Source: Nitrospirota bacterium
GTDB lineage: Bacteria > Nitrospirota > UBA9217
Direction: 5' to 3'
DNA: 64,000 nucleotides
Assembly (NCBI GenBank): GCA_963663225.1
Contig: OY760142.1
Location: forward strand, 2,240,001 to 2,304,000
Of the stretch, positions 25,193 to 53,226 are shown piece after piece. Below the pieces are notes generated by a model. It saw only the letters and a list, made by a program, of their open reading frames with translations. It was not told the DNA's origin and ran no database searches. Numbering within the stretch: position 1 is the stretch's first letter; every line of letters starts with the position of its first letter. The position numbers and the translations under genes are program-made.

Positions 25193-25221
25193 TTGACAAA
25201 AAGGCCTTCTCGCTTTATCAT
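25193..25221 (+). promoter_or_regulatory. Sigma70 promoter of the ArsR/selenoprotein operon
   Basis: TTGACA (25193-25198), 17 bp spacer, TATCAT (25216-25221). Confidence 0.75.
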
Positions 25222-25256: not shown

Positions 25257-25601
25257 ATGACATCTAAAATAGAAAAACTGGCAAAAATATTCAAAGTGCT
25301 AGGCGACCCGAACCGACTCACTATCGTTATGTCGATCGGCAAAAGCTCTCGATCGGTGACCGAAATCATTAATACTACAGACTTGTCTCAAACCTTGGTA
25401 TCCTTTCACTTGAAAGCGCTCCGAAATGCCTCAATAGTCAAAACAGACCGCAGTGGGCCATTTATTTATTACAGCCTCACAGAGCCGTCACTCATGGATA
25501 TTCTGGGTGAACTCACGCGCACGGTTTCTTCCATAGATTTAATAGGATCGAAGATACAGGTGGCAACCAACGGGCGGGGCTCTGACAGGAGAAGGAGGTA
25601 A
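25257..25601 (+). CDS. ArsR/SmtB family transcriptional repressor
   Basis: FKVLGDPNRLTI, LSQTLVSFHLKALR, GPFIYYSL. Start is ATG 25257 or GTG 25242. Confidence 0.92.
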   Translation: MTSKIEKLAKIFKVLGDPNRLTIVMSIGKSSRSVTEIINTTDLSQTLVSFHLKALRNASIVKTDRSGPFIYYSLTEPSLMDILGELTRTVSSIDLIGSKIQVATNGRGSDRRRR

Positions 25602-25603
25602 CT

Positions 25604-25849
25604 ATGTGGTGGAACGGACCGGGTCCAGGATGGGGGCCGATGTACGGCTGGTGGATCATGCCGATATTCGGGATTATTTTCCTGCTGATCATTCTTTTCA
25701 TCGTCAGCCGTTTTTTCGGCAGCGGGAACGGCTTCTGCGGCAAGCGAGAACGGCGGGATGATGACGGCATACTTGAACTGAAAAAAGAGATACAGGAACT
25801 TAAGGAAGAAATCAGGGAATTAAAGAACGCACAGGGCGGAGGCAAATAA
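25604..25849 (+). CDS. Small single-pass membrane protein with C-terminal coiled coil
   Basis: RBS AAGGAGG. G/W/M-rich N-terminus, one TM segment, ELKKEIQELKEEIRELK. Stop abuts the next ATG. Confidence 0.8.
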   Translation: MWWNGPGPGWGPMYGWWIMPIFGIIFLLIILFIVSRFFGSGNGFCGKRERRDDDGILELKKEIQELKEEIRELKNAQGGGK

Positions 25850-26329
25850 ATGGAAAAGGATAAAATCGGCGACATGTTGTCGCAGGTAAGCCCCGTTCAC
25901 AAAAAAGAAATACTCAATAACCTTATTGCCACCCTACTTAAAGACCTGAACGAAACTGATAAAAAAGAAGTATTTCAAGCGATTCTGACAGGAAGAAAAA
26001 ATTCAGGTCAAGTCATCGATATGGTTGAGCGCTGAATACAGGAATGCACGGATTCCGGCGTGAATCCTGTGGAGATGAGTAAAGAGGTTATTTCGGCCAT
26101 CAGCCATTCTTATGAACTTGCCACCTATTCTACACCTGAGCTACGGGGGCTTTTCAACGACTGGTTAGGAGAAATCGAACGAGAAATCATAGAATTTCTT
26201 TCGGAGAAAGATACGGTAGATCCAGACGAGGTTTCAAAGCATTTCAGGCTTGAACGCGAAAGTGCCATATTTATATTAAGCAGGCTAGCCCGTGAGGGCA
26301 AAATCAACCTTCAGGCATCGGGTACCTGA
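25850..26329 (+). CDS. Putative selenoprotein (159 aa, U62 in UxxxC) with wHTH-like C-terminus
   Basis: Track ORFs 25850-26035 and 26060-26329 share one frame, separated only by TGA 26033-26035 (MVER-U-IQEC). A SECIS-like hairpin follows. Confidence 0.72.
26047..26071 (+). promoter_or_regulatory. SECIS-like hairpin 1
   Basis: CACGGATTC-CGGCGT-GAATCC(T)GTG. Loop begins 20 nt after the TGA. Confidence 0.65.
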
Positions 26330-26355
26330 TGCACAGATCCGAGATAGAAGGGAGC

Positions 26356-26619
26356 ATGGACAATAAAATACTGAATACTGGAGCTATTACATCAGCGCTG
26401 GCCTATACGTTTTGCTGACAACTTGTTACAGTCCTAGCCGGTTTTGGGTTGGGAGGCTTCACCCCGGCAGTTTGGATAGATAAATACCGTTGGCTGTTTC
26501 TGGCGGTAGCGGTTGTGCTCCTTGCATTCGCCTTTTACCGGGCGTACAGGGACCGCGAAAAGACAAGCCCATGGGGATCAGGCTTTTGTAAGGAGCTTCT
26601 ATTCTCTGCCTTGTCCTGA
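26356..26619 (+). CDS. MerT-like mercury/metal transporter, putative selenoprotein (C20-U21), absent from ORF track
   Basis: RBS AGGGAG. MDNKILNTGAITSALAYTFC-U-QLVTVLAGFGLGGFTPAVWIDKYRWLFLAVAVVLLAFAFYRAYR aligns with the MerT TM1 CC pair and YRxxF...YR. TGA at 26416-26418. Confidence 0.8.
26432..26454 (+). promoter_or_regulatory. SECIS-like hairpin 2
   Basis: TCCTAGCC-GGTTTTG-GGTTGGGA (8 bp including 2 G-U). Loop begins 21 nt after the TGA. Confidence 0.62.
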
Positions 26620-26657
26620 TATTTTATTCCCTGCTGTAGAAGACAAAGGAGTTTACC

Positions 26658-28082
26658 ATGACAGACGATCTTAAAAAGAAAAGCGGCGGTGCTTCCTGCT
26701 GACCCCCCGATACTGATGCCGGTCGGCAGCAGAGCACTTGTACAAATGACGTAGAGCAGAAGCAGTCTAATACCGAGCACTGCATGGTTTGTGGCTCATC
26801 CCTGGAATACCTTGACCAGACAAGGCATATAACATGTTCATATTGCGGAAAGATCGAGGGCGGCCATATCATGTGCCCCAACGGTCACTATATCTGCGAC
26901 CATTGCCACAACCGGGGCGCAATGGAGATTATTCAAGATATTTCGCATATGTCAAACTCTAAAGACCCATTTGAGATTGCGGAATTGATGATGAGCTATC
27001 CAGGGCTTCCCATGCTCGGGTGCCAGCATGCCTACATCGCGAGCGGTGCGCTCATGGCCGCGATAAAAAATGAGGGTTCGCGGAGCATCACAAACAACGA
27101 TATGGATGAGGTCTTCAAACGCACCGAGAAACAAGCTCATGGCGGGTACTGCGGTCTTTCAGGCGTATGCGGCATCGCTCCAGCCATTGGGGCTTGCTTT
27201 TCAGTTCTTACCGGCTCAAAATGCGGCACCACCCAAGAGCAGCAGATCACCATGGAGGCTGTAACGCGTGTATCACGCGTTATCACCGACCTTACCGGCC
27301 CAAGCTGCTGCAAAGCATATGTGCGGGGTGCCCTGGAGGTTTCGGTATCGCTTTTGAAGGATAGTTTAAATATCATCCTGCCTTCGCCTAAAGAGAAAGC
27401 GACCTGCACTTACTCAAGCAAACATCCCCATGGCTGCCGAGAAGGACAGTGTCCGTATTTTGCTGTAACTGTAGAACCCACAAGAGCAGCCTTGAACATG
27501 AGTAAAGTACCTGTCTCACTAATCATAAGAAAAGTGGCTTCAACAGATAGCAAGATGAAAGAGTTATTAAAACGAGCTTTGGAGTTAGGCGCGGATAATG
27601 CAAAAATAATCTCCACTGATTCGGTTGTGGTAGAGGAGTGGGCCCGGTGGAAGTGCCAGTACGGATGCGCACTCTATGAAAAGGATGGCTGCCATCCACC
27701 CAATGCTCCTGATGCTGAAAGTACGAAGAAACTTATGAGAGAATACAGCACGGCCGTGCTCCTTAAGGGATCCAAGGGAAAAGCACTCACAGAAATTGCA
27801 GTTCGGCTTGAAGGAGAAGCTTACCATCAGGGCTACTATAAGGCATTTGCTTTAACGGCGCTTTCAAGCGGCGGCGGAAGCGGATCGACCTGACCCTCCG
27901 GCGATAAAGAGACTCCGGGTGAGTCTCAAAATATGGAACAGCAAAACATGAGAATCCGGCCTCTTATGGAAGCCTGCGGCATTGATGTTTTTAAGACAGC
28001 AAGAAACAACGGTTTTGAAATAGACACTAAAAAAGAAACATACGGTGGTTGGAATTACTTTGCACTTATTTTGGTGGAATAA
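26658..28082 (+). CDS. DUF5714-DUF2284 fusion metal-binding protein, putative double selenoprotein (474 aa, U15 and U412)
   Basis: RBS AAAGGAG before ATG 26658. TGA 26700 (GGASC-U-PP) is in frame with track ORF 26784. After TGA 27891 the frame continues with the DUF2284-type tail RPLMEACGIDVFKTARNNG...YFALILVE to TAA 28080-28082, which abuts the next ATG. Confidence 0.82.
26713..26732 (+). promoter_or_regulatory. SECIS-like hairpin 3
   Basis: CTG-A-TGCC-GGTC-GGCA-G-CAG. Loop begins 18 nt after the TGA. Confidence 0.55.
27909..27927 (+). promoter_or_regulatory. SECIS-like hairpin 4
   Basis: GAGACTC-CGGGT-GAGTCTC, perfect 7-bp stem. Loop begins 22 nt after the TGA. Confidence 0.7.
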
Positions 28083-28388
28083 ATGAAGATTGAATGTTAC
28101 CTATCACAAGGTTGCTCTTCTCTTGAAGAGCTAAAAGCAAATATCGAACAGGCGCTTAACATGTCCGGTATTAAAGCGGAGATGTATTATTATCAAATAG
28201 GCGATGAAGAAGCCGCCGAATTAAAACTGGCCGGTTCTCCAACGGTCTTGATAGACGGCAAAGACATTGCCCCGGGTGCAGCGCCGGGATTTTCCTGAAG
28301 AACATACCGTGACGAGTCTGGCAGGCTCGGCAATGTTCCTACGGTTGAAATGCTTTTAAAAGCACTTCTTGTTAGCAAAAAGCAATGA
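28083..28388 (+). CDS. Small thioredoxin-fold putative selenoprotein (101 aa, U72)
   Basis: GC near N-terminus, GSPTVLIDGKD, then GFS-U-RTYRDESGRLGNVPT. This matches the CRxY...G..GVP tail of small Trx-like proteins from mer/metal loci. TGA at 28296-28298. Confidence 0.82.
28313..28329 (+). promoter_or_regulatory. SECIS-like hairpin 5
   Basis: CGAGTCT-GGC-AGGCTCG. Loop begins 20-21 nt after the TGA. Confidence 0.65.
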
Positions 28389-41121: not shown

Positions 41122-43004
41122 CTATCCCATCCATTTTTCCTCGGCAGTCTTTGCCTGCATGCTCTTCGTAGGATCAACCGGAATTAAACATGCCTCACCT
41201 TCAATCGGAGCAACGACCGATTCACCCCAAATATCCTGTACCCGTTCTTTGATCTGGAGCAGTTCATACCAGCGTCTCATGGTTGTTACAAAAACGATTA
41301 CCATCAATACCATAATGATGATGGACAGCGCGGCGAGCAAGTATTTCCCCGTGGGGATATAGTTTTTAAAGGTGAGCAGGTAACCCGCATACATGGTCAC
41401 AAAAGCCATGAAGATGCCGGGTATTGCGGTGATCCACGCGTATTTTGCCTTCCCCAGCCTGATGATCATGGTTGTCCCGATTATCAGCGCGCTTGATGCG
41501 AGCAACTGGTTGCTCATACCGAACAGAGGCCAGATTGTCGATATTTCACCGGTATAGACGAGATAACCCCATGTACCCGTGAAGAGTGCGCTCGTTATGA
41601 TAATGCCGGGCCACCATCTCCGTTCAAGAAATTTCGGGGCAACTTTGCCGATCATTTCCTGGAGCAGAACCTGCCGACTCTCGTGCCGGTATCAACGGCA
41701 GTCAGGATGAACACGGCCTCAAACATGATGGCGAAATGGTACCAGTAGGCCATGAGATGTTTCATGAAAGGAATCGAAGAGAAAATATATGCCATACCGA
41801 CGGCCAGAGAGACGGCGCCGCCTGGTCTTCCCTGGATTTTCTCTCCTACTTCGGTTGCAAGTTCCGGGAGATTGACAACAGCCACGCCGAGCTTTTCAAA
41901 CGCTGCGGGAGCAGAATTGATCGCAAAATAATCTGCAGGAACAAGCACGCAAGCCGCTATCAGCGCCATGATGGCAACGACTCCCTCGGTGAGCATCGCT
42001 CCGTAGCCGATGAAGAGAACGTCTCGTTCGTTCCCGATCATTTTGGGTGTCGTTCCCGATCCGATAATGGCATGGAATCCGGACAATGCGCCGCAGGCGA
42101 TTGTAATGAAGACAAACGGGAAAACAGGCCCCGAAAGGACCGGACCGCCGCCGTTTATAAACTGGGTCAATGCGGGCATCTGAAAATCAGGATGCACGAC
42201 AAATATACCCATGATAAGCGCAGCGACTGTTCCTATCTTCAAATACGTTGAAAGATAGTCTCTTGGACAGAGGAGCATCCAGACTGGGAGCACCGAAGCG
42301 ATAAATCCATAGGCCGGGATGATGAGTGAAATCTGTTTCTTTGAAAGAGTAAATATTGATGACAGGGTGGGGTCTGCCGCAACATACGGACCGGCAAGAA
42401 TCGCGAGGAAAAGAAGTATAACACCCATGGTGCTTCCACCCTTGATGTCGCCGGGCCGTATTTTATACATCCAGAGTCCCATCATGAGCGCAATCGGCAT
42501 GGTGGCAAACACGGTAAAGGTTCCCCAGGCGCTTTCGAACATTGCGTTCACGACCGCGAGAGAAAGTCCGGCAAGGGTCAGAAGCAGGATAAAGAGGAAG
42601 GCGACCGAAGCGGCAGCACCGCAGGCTTTACCTACTTCGCTTTCCGCAATTTTCGAGAGGCTTCTGCCTTTGTGCCTGACAGAGGCAAAAAGCACCACCA
42701 TATCATGGACCGACCCTGCCAGCACGCATCCGATAAGGATCCAGAGGGCGCCCGGCAGATAGCCGAATTGTGCTGCAAGCACCGGGCCGAGAAGCGGCCC
42801 GGCCGCGGCGATGGCTGCAAAATGATGGCCGAACAGAACGAACTTATTGGTTTTCACATAATCAACTCCGTCCGCACATGATATGGATGGTGTTGGACGG
42901 TCCTGCCTCAGTCCCAGGACTTTGTTCGCGATGAACAAGCCGTAGAATCTGTAGGCGATGGCAAAAAGGCACAGCGCAACAAAAACTAACGTCAATGCAT
43001 TCAT
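41122..43004 (-). pseudogene. cstA: CstA-family pyruvate/peptide transporter (BtsT/YjiY type), split by a 1-nt frameshift near 41667
   Basis: FGHHFAAIAAAGPLLGP, TIACGALSGFH, WPLFGMSNQLLA. Adding one C (TTC CTG) joins both ORFs as TRVGRFLLQEMIG. Real lesion or sequencing error. Confidence 0.85.
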
Positions 43005-51506: not shown

Positions 51507-52370
51507 ATGCAAAAAAAAATACTGTTTCTCATGGCACTGACGGTTTGTATTCTGCTCTCGGGAATTTCCCTTGCACGTGCGGATGCAGCATGTGCGGAAG
51601 TCTATGGAACGGGAGCCAACAGGTTTTCCCTTGCCACGGGCAGCCCCGGAGAACTCGGCTTGCTGAAGATTCTGGGCGAGACGTTCGGCAAACAGTCCAA
51701 TGCTGCACTCTGCTGGGTAAAAGCAGGGTCCGGCGAATCATTGCAGCTCCTGAAGGGAAAAAAGGTGGACATGATCATGGTCCATGCGCCTGATATGGAA
51801 AAGAAGGCTCTTGCAGAAGGCTGGGGTGCAAACCGGACGCTGATAGGATCGAATGAATTTTTTATCGTCGGTTGTAAGTCGGACACGGCAAAGATCGCCT
51901 CTGCAAAGAATGCGGTCGAAGCCTATGCCCGCATAGCAAAGTCACAGACAAAATTTTTCTCACGGGGAGATAATTCAGGCACGCACAAGAAGGAAATGGA
52001 CGTCTGGAAAAAAGCGGGTATTGCCCCATCCGGCTCCTGGTATATAGTCACGAAGGATTTTATGACTGCAACCTTGAATCGGGCGGATCTGGAAAAAGGG
52101 TATTTCATGACCGACAGCAGTACCTGGGTTGCGGAAAAGAAGAACCTGCGGAACCTCACGATTCTTTTCCGGGGGGACAAGTTTCTTGTAAACACCTACC
52201 ACGCCCTCTCAGTACCGGCTGGGCAGTCTGCCGGGGCGGAGACCGCAGCCAAATTTATTAGATTCGTGGCCTCAGAGCAGGGCCAGATGATTATTCGTGA
52301 TTTTGGAAAGGAATTATTCGGAGAAGGGCAGTATAACGATGCTGCATATGCTAAAAAATACGATGATTAG
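51507..52370 (+). CDS. Tungstate-binding protein TupA-like (divergent copy)
   Basis: Signal peptide, MVHAP, FFSRGDNSGTHKKE. Lacks the N-terminal TTTS motif (has ATGSPGE). Confidence 0.75.
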   Translation: MQKKILFLMALTVCILLSGISLARADAACAEVYGTGANRFSLATGSPGELGLLKILGETFGKQSNAALCWVKAGSGESLQLLKGKKVDMIMVHAPDMEKKALAEGWGANRTLIGSNEFFIVGCKSDTAKIASAKNAVEAYARIAKSQTKFFSRGDNSGTHKKEMDVWKKAGIAPSGSWYIVTKDFMTATLNRADLEKGYFMTDSSTWVAEKKNLRNLTILFRGDKFLVNTYHALSVPAGQSAGAETAAKFIRFVASEQGQMIIRDFGKELFGEGQYNDAAYAKKYDD

Positions 52371-52395
52371 CTTACGATAATCAAGGAGGATTGCT

Positions 52396-53226
52396 ATGAA
52401 ACTGAGCAAAAAATGGGCGTTTACTGTTTTTATATTGGTTCTCATGTGTATGGGGACTGCTGCAACAGCCTCTGCGGAAATACGGATACGTTGTGCGTCA
52501 ACAACAAGCACGCAAAATTCCGGCCTGTTTGACTACATCCTGCCGGTATTCGAGAAAAAAACGGGTATTAAAGTTGATGTTGTTGCCGTAGGCACCGGCG
52601 CTTCCATTGAGATAGGAAAACGGGGAGATGCTGATGTGGTTTTTGTGCATGCAAAGGACCTTGAACTCAAGGCGGTTCAGGACGGGTATTTCGTCAATCG
52701 TCATGATGTAATGTACAATGATTTTGTGGTCATCGGCCCGGCGGATGATCCGCAGAAGATCAAAAATATAAAATCAGTCAGTGATGCATTTAAAAAAATT
52801 GCAAATTCCGGCTCGTTTTTTGTCTCGCGGGGAGATAAATCCGGCACCCATACAAAAGAACTGTCCATCTGGAAATCAGCTGCTATAGTTCCGGCAGGCC
52901 AAAAATGGTATTTGGAAGCAGGGCAGGGGATGGAAAGAACGCAGAGAATTGCAAATGAAAAACGCGCATACACACTGACGGACAGAGGTACCTGGCTGGC
53001 CACAAAAGACAAGGACAGACTGGACATGATTATCGTTCTTGAAGGAGATCCCGTTCTATTCAATCAATACGGCGTCATGGCGGTGAACCCGGACAAGCAC
53101 AAGCATATAAAGTTCAAGGAAGCGATGGCGTTTGTCGATTGGCTCATATCGAAAGATGGACAGGACGTGATTGCTTCCTTCAAAGACAAGATGGGAAACC
53201 AGCTTTTTATGCCGAACGCGAAATAA
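52396..53226 (+). CDS. tupA: Tungstate ABC transporter substrate-binding protein
   Basis: STTSTQNSGL, VGTG, FVHA, SRGDKSGTH, GQGM, NQY. Confidence 0.9.
   Translation: MKLSKKWAFTVFILVLMCMGTAATASAEIRIRCASTTSTQNSGLFDYILPVFEKKTGIKVDVVAVGTGASIEIGKRGDADVVFVHAKDLELKAVQDGYFVNRHDVMYNDFVVIGPADDPQKIKNIKSVSDAFKKIANSGSFFVSRGDKSGTHTKELSIWKSAAIVPAGQKWYLEAGQGMERTQRIANEKRAYTLTDRGTWLATKDKDRLDMIIVLEGDPVLFNQYGVMAVNPDKHKHIKFKEAMAFVDWLISKDGQDVIASFKDKMGNQLFMPNAK

Follow-up and report, generated by a model that had tools for sequence, protein, structure and literature searches.

Five hairpins consistent with canonical bacterial SECIS elements in a predicted ArsR-controlled selenoprotein operon of a Nitrospirota bacterium

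The window analyzed here, a stretch of DNA 64,000 nucleotides in length, contains a plus-strand operon in which genes for an ArsR-type regulator and a small membrane protein are followed by four genes harboring, between them, five in-frame internal TGA codons. A hairpin of matched geometry stands behind each of these codons, and it is very likely that the five represent canonical bacterial SECIS elements within a single ArsR-controlled selenoprotein operon. The mechanism to which they belong is an ordinary one, the operon is of a largely known selenoprotein type, and its genes are known or near-known. The predicted features of the operon are as follows:

25193..25221, plus strand: sigma-70-like promoter TTGACA-17-TATCAT ahead of the operon, predicted from the consensus only
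25257..25601, plus strand: ArsR/SmtB metalloregulator, TsoR-like (NF033788, score 75.7, above the cut-off of 55)
25604..25849, plus strand: small membrane protein without a family, for which syntenic relatives exist
25850..26329, plus strand: TsoA-related selenoprotein, 159 aa, U62, UxxxC (NF045695, score 99.7, below the cut-off of 170)
26356..26619, plus strand: MerT-like CU selenoprotein gene, frameshifted (PF02411, E value 1.2e-5)
26658..28082, plus strand: MbdU, metal-binding double selenoprotein, 474 aa, U15 and U412 (NF045648, score 750.4, above the cut-off of 600)
28083..28388, plus strand: thioredoxin-like DF-family (seleno)protein, 101 aa, U72 (NF049942, score 63.9, below the cut-off of 70)

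The five selenocysteine (Sec) codons and their hairpins, with the distance from UGA to loop, are located as follows:

26033-26035, plus strand: Sec codon 1; SECIS 1, hairpin 26047-26071, loop 26056-26061 (CGGCGU), 20 nt
26416-26418, plus strand: Sec codon 2; SECIS 2, hairpin 26432-26454, loop 26440-26446 (GGUUUUG), 21 nt
26700-26702, plus strand: Sec codon 3; SECIS 3, hairpin 26713-26732, loop 26721-26724 (GGUC), 18 nt
27891-27893, plus strand: Sec codon 4; SECIS 4, hairpin 27909-27927, loop 27916-27920 (CGGGU), 22 nt
28296-28298, plus strand: Sec codon 5; SECIS 5, hairpin 28313-28329, loop 28320-28322 (GGC), 21 nt

Folding, begun 8 to 12 nt past each TGA, reproduced exactly the loops and the spacings of 20, 21, 18, 22, and 21 nt that a preliminary description of this DNA had reported after every internal TGA. 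The upper stems comprise 7 to 10 pairs (-8.7 to -11.9 kcal/mol) and close loops of 3 to 7 nt, stems 1 and 3 being interrupted (a bulge and a mismatch), while at site 1 a rival fold wins when the 8 nt immediately following the TGA are allowed to pair. At all five sites the hairpin begins 11 to 16 nt after the UGA and GG is located at loop position 1 or 2, and the stem sequences are, as described, unrelated despite their common geometry.

The published bacterial SECIS model specifies a loop of 3 to 9 nt whose first or second base is G, usually with G or U next, an upper stem of 4 to 16 bp, a UGA-to-loop distance of 16 to 37 nt, and an energy of at most -7.5 kcal/mol (PMC13188914, Fig. 2); the same loop-G criterion was applied in PMC1976440, and canonical elements are reported for 87.4% of approximately 58,000 bacterial selenoprotein genes (BSepDB, PMC13326102). 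These constraints were applied through our own code (stem of at least 4 bp), fixed in advance, rather than through bSECISearch itself, and each window site falls inside the model in loop size, loop G, stem length, spacing, and energy. The code is stricter than reality, since the elements of Escherichia coli fdhF, fdnG, and fdoG fail it on energy (-5.7 to -6.0 kcal/mol). An Rfam search of the window returned tRNA-Leu only, bacterial SECIS elements not being confirmable by Rfam.

Among all TGA triplets of the window on both strands, 258 of 2,286 agree with the published model with the five sites included and 253 of 2,281 (11%) with them set aside, a background at which the chance of all five passing is approximately 2e-5. 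A tighter version (18 to 22 nt, GG, at least 7 bp) is matched by 8 of the 2,281 other TGAs; it was dropped as a statistic because it had been drawn post hoc from the five sites. TGA ends 25 of the 62 open reading frames (ORFs) of the window, one of the 25 being a Sec codon of MbdU, and of the remaining 24 only 2 pass the published model and none a version restricted to 17 to 25 nt. The three TGA stops within the operon all fail the published model, which is passed by 4 of 37 TAA or TAG stops and by 34 of 231 Cys codons. The comparison with true TGA stops that had been proposed as a check thus found equally good hairpins to be rare at such stops.

The 11% of TGAs that pass so loose a model, together with the fact that databases end these genes at the TGA, might be taken to mean that the five codons are true stops, or mark broken genes, and that the hairpins are a by-product of protein sequence or of chance. 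Synonymous shuffling lends this reading some weight, in that the protein alone yields a passing hairpin in 21 to 54% of codon shuffles at four of the sites (111, 268, 125, 13, and 107 of 500 at sites 1 to 5). The product of these rates is 1.7e-4, however, so that the encoded protein favors hairpin formation at certain sites, most strongly at site 2, but not at the five jointly. Protein homology, moreover, runs on in frame past each TGA, MbdU passes a curated model with two Sec residues, synonymous freezing is restricted to stem and loop codons, and compensatory changes are present in the MbdU stems (see below); true termination is accordingly regarded as highly improbable.

Related loci were collected by a GTDB genome scan with alignment of 52 of the 120 proteins among the matches listed, which produced 246 relatives, the nearest being Nitrospirota; the best 80 of the 246 loci were kept. 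One row was left out before sites were counted (a second L021 hit, 35% identical, with TGC), four MbdU U15 rows were shifted by one codon where the tblastn alignment fell on the C of CU, and L028 was included manually. Within this set TGA is present at all 99 retained aligned sites (TsoA-like, 26/26; MerT-like, 12/12; MbdU, 32/32 and 28/28; DF-like, 1/1), and no Cys-codon orthologue was found at the Sec sites among the best 80 of the 246 loci. The published model is passed by 80 of these 99 sites and the 17-to-25-nt version by 78, with 19 failing the published model, whereas among 228 further ORFs that end in TGA in these loci the numbers passing are 25 and 11, respectively. The counts are not independent, since the loci are akin to each other. 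All 99 sites retain a loop G at one of the two positions.

At sites 1 and 2, where covariation is uninformative, constraint is visible at the wobble positions. The six core pairs of SECIS 1 are invariant over 23 distinct rows, leaving covariation uninformative at this site, and four stem codons of the TsoA-like genes are fixed at the wobble position (21/21, 25/25, 25/25, and 26/26), against 1 of 70 columns elsewhere. SECIS 2 is similarly uninformative, with 93% of cells paired across its relatives and no compensatory (two-sided) change among them, and four hairpin codons of the MerT-like genes are fixed at the wobble (11/11), against 2 of 26 columns elsewhere. The MbdU stems do covary: in that of U15 (30 rows, 88.9% paired) 4 of 6 pairs have changed on both sides, with a covariation score reached by 0 of 500 shuffles, and in that of U412 (28 rows, 86.7% paired) 2 of 7 pairs have done so, in 11 cells, where again 0 of 500 shuffles reach the score, although 304 of 500 reach the number of pairs. 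The anticipated covariation across homologs was borne out at sites 3 and 4 but not at sites 1 and 2; site 5 has a single related locus. A further group of relatives, in which DUF5714 proteins end in CxxU-x-x-(x)-stop, carries the hairpin mostly beyond the stop codon, where it is free of coding constraint; a G-led loop at 16 to 22 nt is nonetheless kept in 17 of 18 full-length cases. The frozen wobbles at sites 1 and 2 and the compensatory changes at sites 3 and 4 strongly support the view that the RNA itself, beyond the protein, would be under selection.

A general reading of TGA as Trp or Gly (genetic code 4 or 25), with the hairpins as incidental features, is the least probable of the explanations considered. 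It draws on Trp, rather than Cys, at the position of U62 in three full-length database relatives of the TsoA-related protein (protein records only) and on Gly at the TGA position in one MbdU database relative, residues which may themselves stem from gene callers set to another code. It conflicts with the use of TGA as a terminator in 25 of the 62 window ORFs, housekeeping genes included, and with the retention of TGA across several phyla, where it aligns with Sec or Cys residues in known families. The model fit, the invariant TGA of the related sites, the frozen wobbles, and the compensatory changes instead indicate that the five hairpins are almost certainly working SECIS elements, at which read-through is predicted.

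In E. coli, SelB binds the SECIS through its domain 4 and competes with RF2 in delivering Sec-tRNA(Sec) (PMC4513850), the upper stem-loop of the SECIS being located 11 nt from the UGA and its loop G23 being essential (PMC8659212). As the window hairpins begin 11 to 16 nt after the UGA and carry a loop G, the same SelB mechanism may be envisaged here. When the ribosome reaches an in-frame UGA, the upper stem-loop 11 to 16 nt further on would lie just outside the mRNA entry channel, where SelB, carrying GTP and Sec-tRNA(Sec), would grip the apical-loop G by its C-terminal domain and deliver selenocysteine in place of RF2-mediated termination. The shared spacing is explained by a ribosome-SelB geometry common to bacteria, and the differences between stem sequences by the need for each to encode its own protein. 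None of selA, selB, selC, and selD is located inside the 64,000-nt window; we infer that the source genome carries selA to selD and that read-through takes place. Selenoproteins of the SelD type are present in two of the related loci, L005 and L047.

The preliminary description had further proposed that the set defines a lineage-specific SECIS. Its more general part holds, the bacterial SECIS model being matched at five of five sites and conserved, but a lineage-specific class finds no support, all of the features lying within the general bacterial model. In its fullest form, this proposal envisages a class with GG at 18 to 22 nt and a specialized SelB, confined probably to Nitrospirota to judge by the nearest relatives. 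GG does recur in the same place in relatives (TsoA-like, 26/26 sites; MbdU, 29/32 and 27/28 sites; among the best 80 of the 246 loci), the spacing of 18 to 22 nt is tighter than the published 16 to 37 nt, and lineage-specific forms may exist among the 12.6% of BSepDB entries without canonical elements (PMC13326102). The five elements are of the canonical kind, however, rather than of that atypical 12.6%, and E. coli fdhF (NC_000913.3) shares both loop and spacing with site 3 (GGUC, at 18 nt from the UGA). The same geometry occurs in Bacillota, Desulfobacterota, Actinomycetota, and Chloroflexota and in unclassified records, and outside Nitrospirota, as judged by record title, GG occupies the positions seen in the window in 13 of 13, 15 of 15, and 5 of 6 records (among the best 80 of the 246 loci).

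Individual gene sites also break the proposed rule, those of the TlpA-like and SelD proteins within the same lineage. The MerT-like relatives carry AG, not GG, in the site 2 loop (12 of 12, among the best 80 of the 246 loci), the window owing its GG to a Ser-to-Gly substitution found in this allele alone; at the TlpA-like Sec sites of sister operons, the loop is located at 25 nt in four of eight cases and none lies within 16 to 25 nt in the other four; and two Nitrospirota SelD Sec sites gave no stable hairpin on folding. Taken with the GG loops outside Nitrospirota, these exceptions signify that geometry follows the gene site and not the lineage. The lineage-specific reading is thus largely refuted, and we rate it as very improbable. 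Relative to the bacterial SECIS consensus, nothing at the five sites falls outside, although their spacings occupy only a small portion of the permitted interval. Relative to the E. coli elements, the stems differ in sequence and sites 1, 2, 4, and 5 lie 2 to 4 nt further out; the bulged U17 needed by E. coli SelB (PMC8659212) has no consistent counterpart in the window hairpins, and in fdnG and fdoG the loop, at 19 nt, has G-U preceded by A and so resembles the AGU loops of the MerT-like relatives.

These elements leave the mechanism of Sec decoding unchanged. They do correct annotation, three intact selenoprotein genes and a broken one being called truncated or split in databases. They also constitute a dense and well-controlled natural set of SECIS variants, with a common geometry, frozen wobbles, unrelated stems, and relatives whose hairpins lie past the stop codon, a set that can help to improve models of bacterial SECIS elements or to design Sec insertion sites. 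A literature search returned no paper on SECIS elements in Nitrospirota selenoproteins, as judged by title and the start of the abstract, and none on DUF5714 with selenocysteine.

The promoter match at 25193..25221 is the best of the region to the consensus (11/12). The ArsR-type protein scores 83.4 against TsoR (NF045707), under the cut-off of 115, and relatives of this type are encoded upstream in many sister operons. The small membrane protein contains no internal TGA and gave no family match in profile searches. The gene order of the operon was often seen again among the best 80 of the 246 related loci. In view of the ArsR protein, the promoter-like match, the MerT-like protein, the Cys- and Sec-rich MbdU, and the thioredoxin fold, the operon is predicted to function in the handling of heavy metals or metalloids.

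The TsoA-related protein resembles TsoA (NF045695) in being homologous over its length, in a Sec at the aligned position with Cys four residues on, and in an ArsR-type neighbor. It is 28% identical to a true TsoA, and its U62 aligns with the U of the true TsoA in L052 (215.6 bits). It differs in its score, below the family cut-off, in its motif, V-[ED]-x-U-I-x-E-C (ERUIQEC here) rather than LULAxC, and in its neighbors, MerT-like, MbdU, and TlpA-like, which are unlike those of TsoA. The predicted fold is helical (pLDDT 66, pTM 0.41) and has no match in the PDB at an E value of 0.001 or below. A C-terminal winged helix is probable; the last 50 residues resemble winged-helix DNA-binding domains only at E values of 0.1 or above, and some relatives carry PF09012. 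More speculatively, and with appreciable doubt, the protein may typify an unmodelled subfamily which combines a helical UxxxC sensor with a winged helix, a Sec-containing transcription regulator that would, together with ArsR, control a metal-handling operon of Nitrospirota and Desulfobacterota with at least five Sec codons. As such, it points toward a Sec-based metal sensor, as a lead and not as a result. This subfamily is the one modest novelty of the operon. MbdU and the Tso families derive from Haft and Tolstoy (2025), who may already show this subfamily and operon; MbdU, TsoA, and DF all appear in a table of the review PMC13188914.

The MerT-like protein shares the CU motif of known MerT-family selenoproteins, which is mentioned in bioRxiv 10.1101/2022.07.06.499078, and such proteins are listed in PMC13188914. 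Unlike these, its score lies below the MerT and NCBIfam cut-offs and the window allele is frameshifted near 26572-26576, giving 87 aa here against approximately 94 to 98 aa in relatives; a TAA stands in the frame which relatives read, and the last helix is out of frame. The allele departs from its relatives in 6 of 26 conserved columns, whereas the neighboring genes do so in 5 of 61 and 17 of 228, and the allele may be decaying. Because of the frameshift, SECIS 2 is perhaps a relic.

For MbdU, no difference from the family of NF045648 was found, the protein being above the cut-off with two Sec residues, a CU motif, and the Pfam domains DUF5714 and DUF2284. Of its database relatives, taken as the best 119 of 253 matches, 103 terminate close to the second TGA.

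The thioredoxin-like protein resembles the DF family (NF049942), described in deep-Sep (PMC12013277), in its Sec/Cys pair, and differs in lying under the cut-off, a near miss in which the match spans residues 3 to 94. The related locus at site 5, L001, has the same hairpin (-7.4 kcal/mol). Six of seven DF-like database relatives stop at the residue corresponding to U72, and the seventh has Cys there.

Among the related GTDB loci (best 80 of 246 relatives, cited as locus and coordinate), a family of proteins containing DUF5714 only was identified:

L053:8763, L054:8766, L064:6699, L069:8760, L070:3934, L073:8763 and 13 further loci, plus strand, DUF5714-only proteins

Members, mostly from Nitrospirota, terminate in CxxU-[KR]-[PVS]-(x)-stop; the SECIS extends beyond the stop codon, and a second TGA is often located 2 or 3 codons past the selenocysteine (Sec) codon. 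This family is a natural example of one hairpin common to a Sec UGA and a stop UGA. The L054 protein matched only the model of the double selenoprotein MbdU (NF045648), with a score below the cut-off.

AhpD-like sites, located downstream of DUF5714 or fused to it in some operons, displayed an AGUU loop at 17 nt from the TGA in four of seven cases:

L034:5846 and 6042, L036:6747, L037:8892, L043:4197 and 4383, L061:3072, plus strand, AhpD-like GC[QE]PU sites

At L047:8754 (plus strand), a DUF5714 protein and a SelD-like selenoprotein with a CAGUAAK motif appear to form a single in-frame fusion, which links the DUF5714 family to selenium supply. An MbdU relative at L038:7887 (plus strand) carries an N-terminal SUDUEP, its paired TGAs, two codons apart, lying upstream of a single hairpin.

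The window operon differs from the following sister operons in lacking the TlpA-like gene, which in these operons separates the TsoA-like gene from the small membrane gene, and the Met-rich small protein gene that sometimes joins this insertion:

L004:6860, L007:6523, L012:3729, L022:367, L040:6719, L043:1965, L049:1207, plus strand, TlpA-like WUxxC selenoprotein

Three full-length JGI relatives (P0133 to P0135) of the TsoA-related protein (window 25850-26329, plus strand) possess Trp at the Sec position, reflecting either TGA-to-TGG changes or genes called under another code.

The MerT-like gene of the window harbors a one-base frameshift, and the relatives' frame has a TAA (26572-26639, plus strand), resulting in loss of the last membrane helix. 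Conserved residues are also changed. The gene is possibly a decaying selenoprotein gene in which TGA and hairpin are still kept.

Elsewhere, the window encodes a split transporter, whose ORFs match successive portions of one model, and two tandem pairs:

41125-43004, minus strand, CstA-like transporter, directly adjoining ORFs of 450 aa and 177 aa
46028-48348, plus strand, two different tandem aspartate-semialdehyde dehydrogenase genes
51507-53223, plus strand, two tandem TupA-like tungstate-binding proteins
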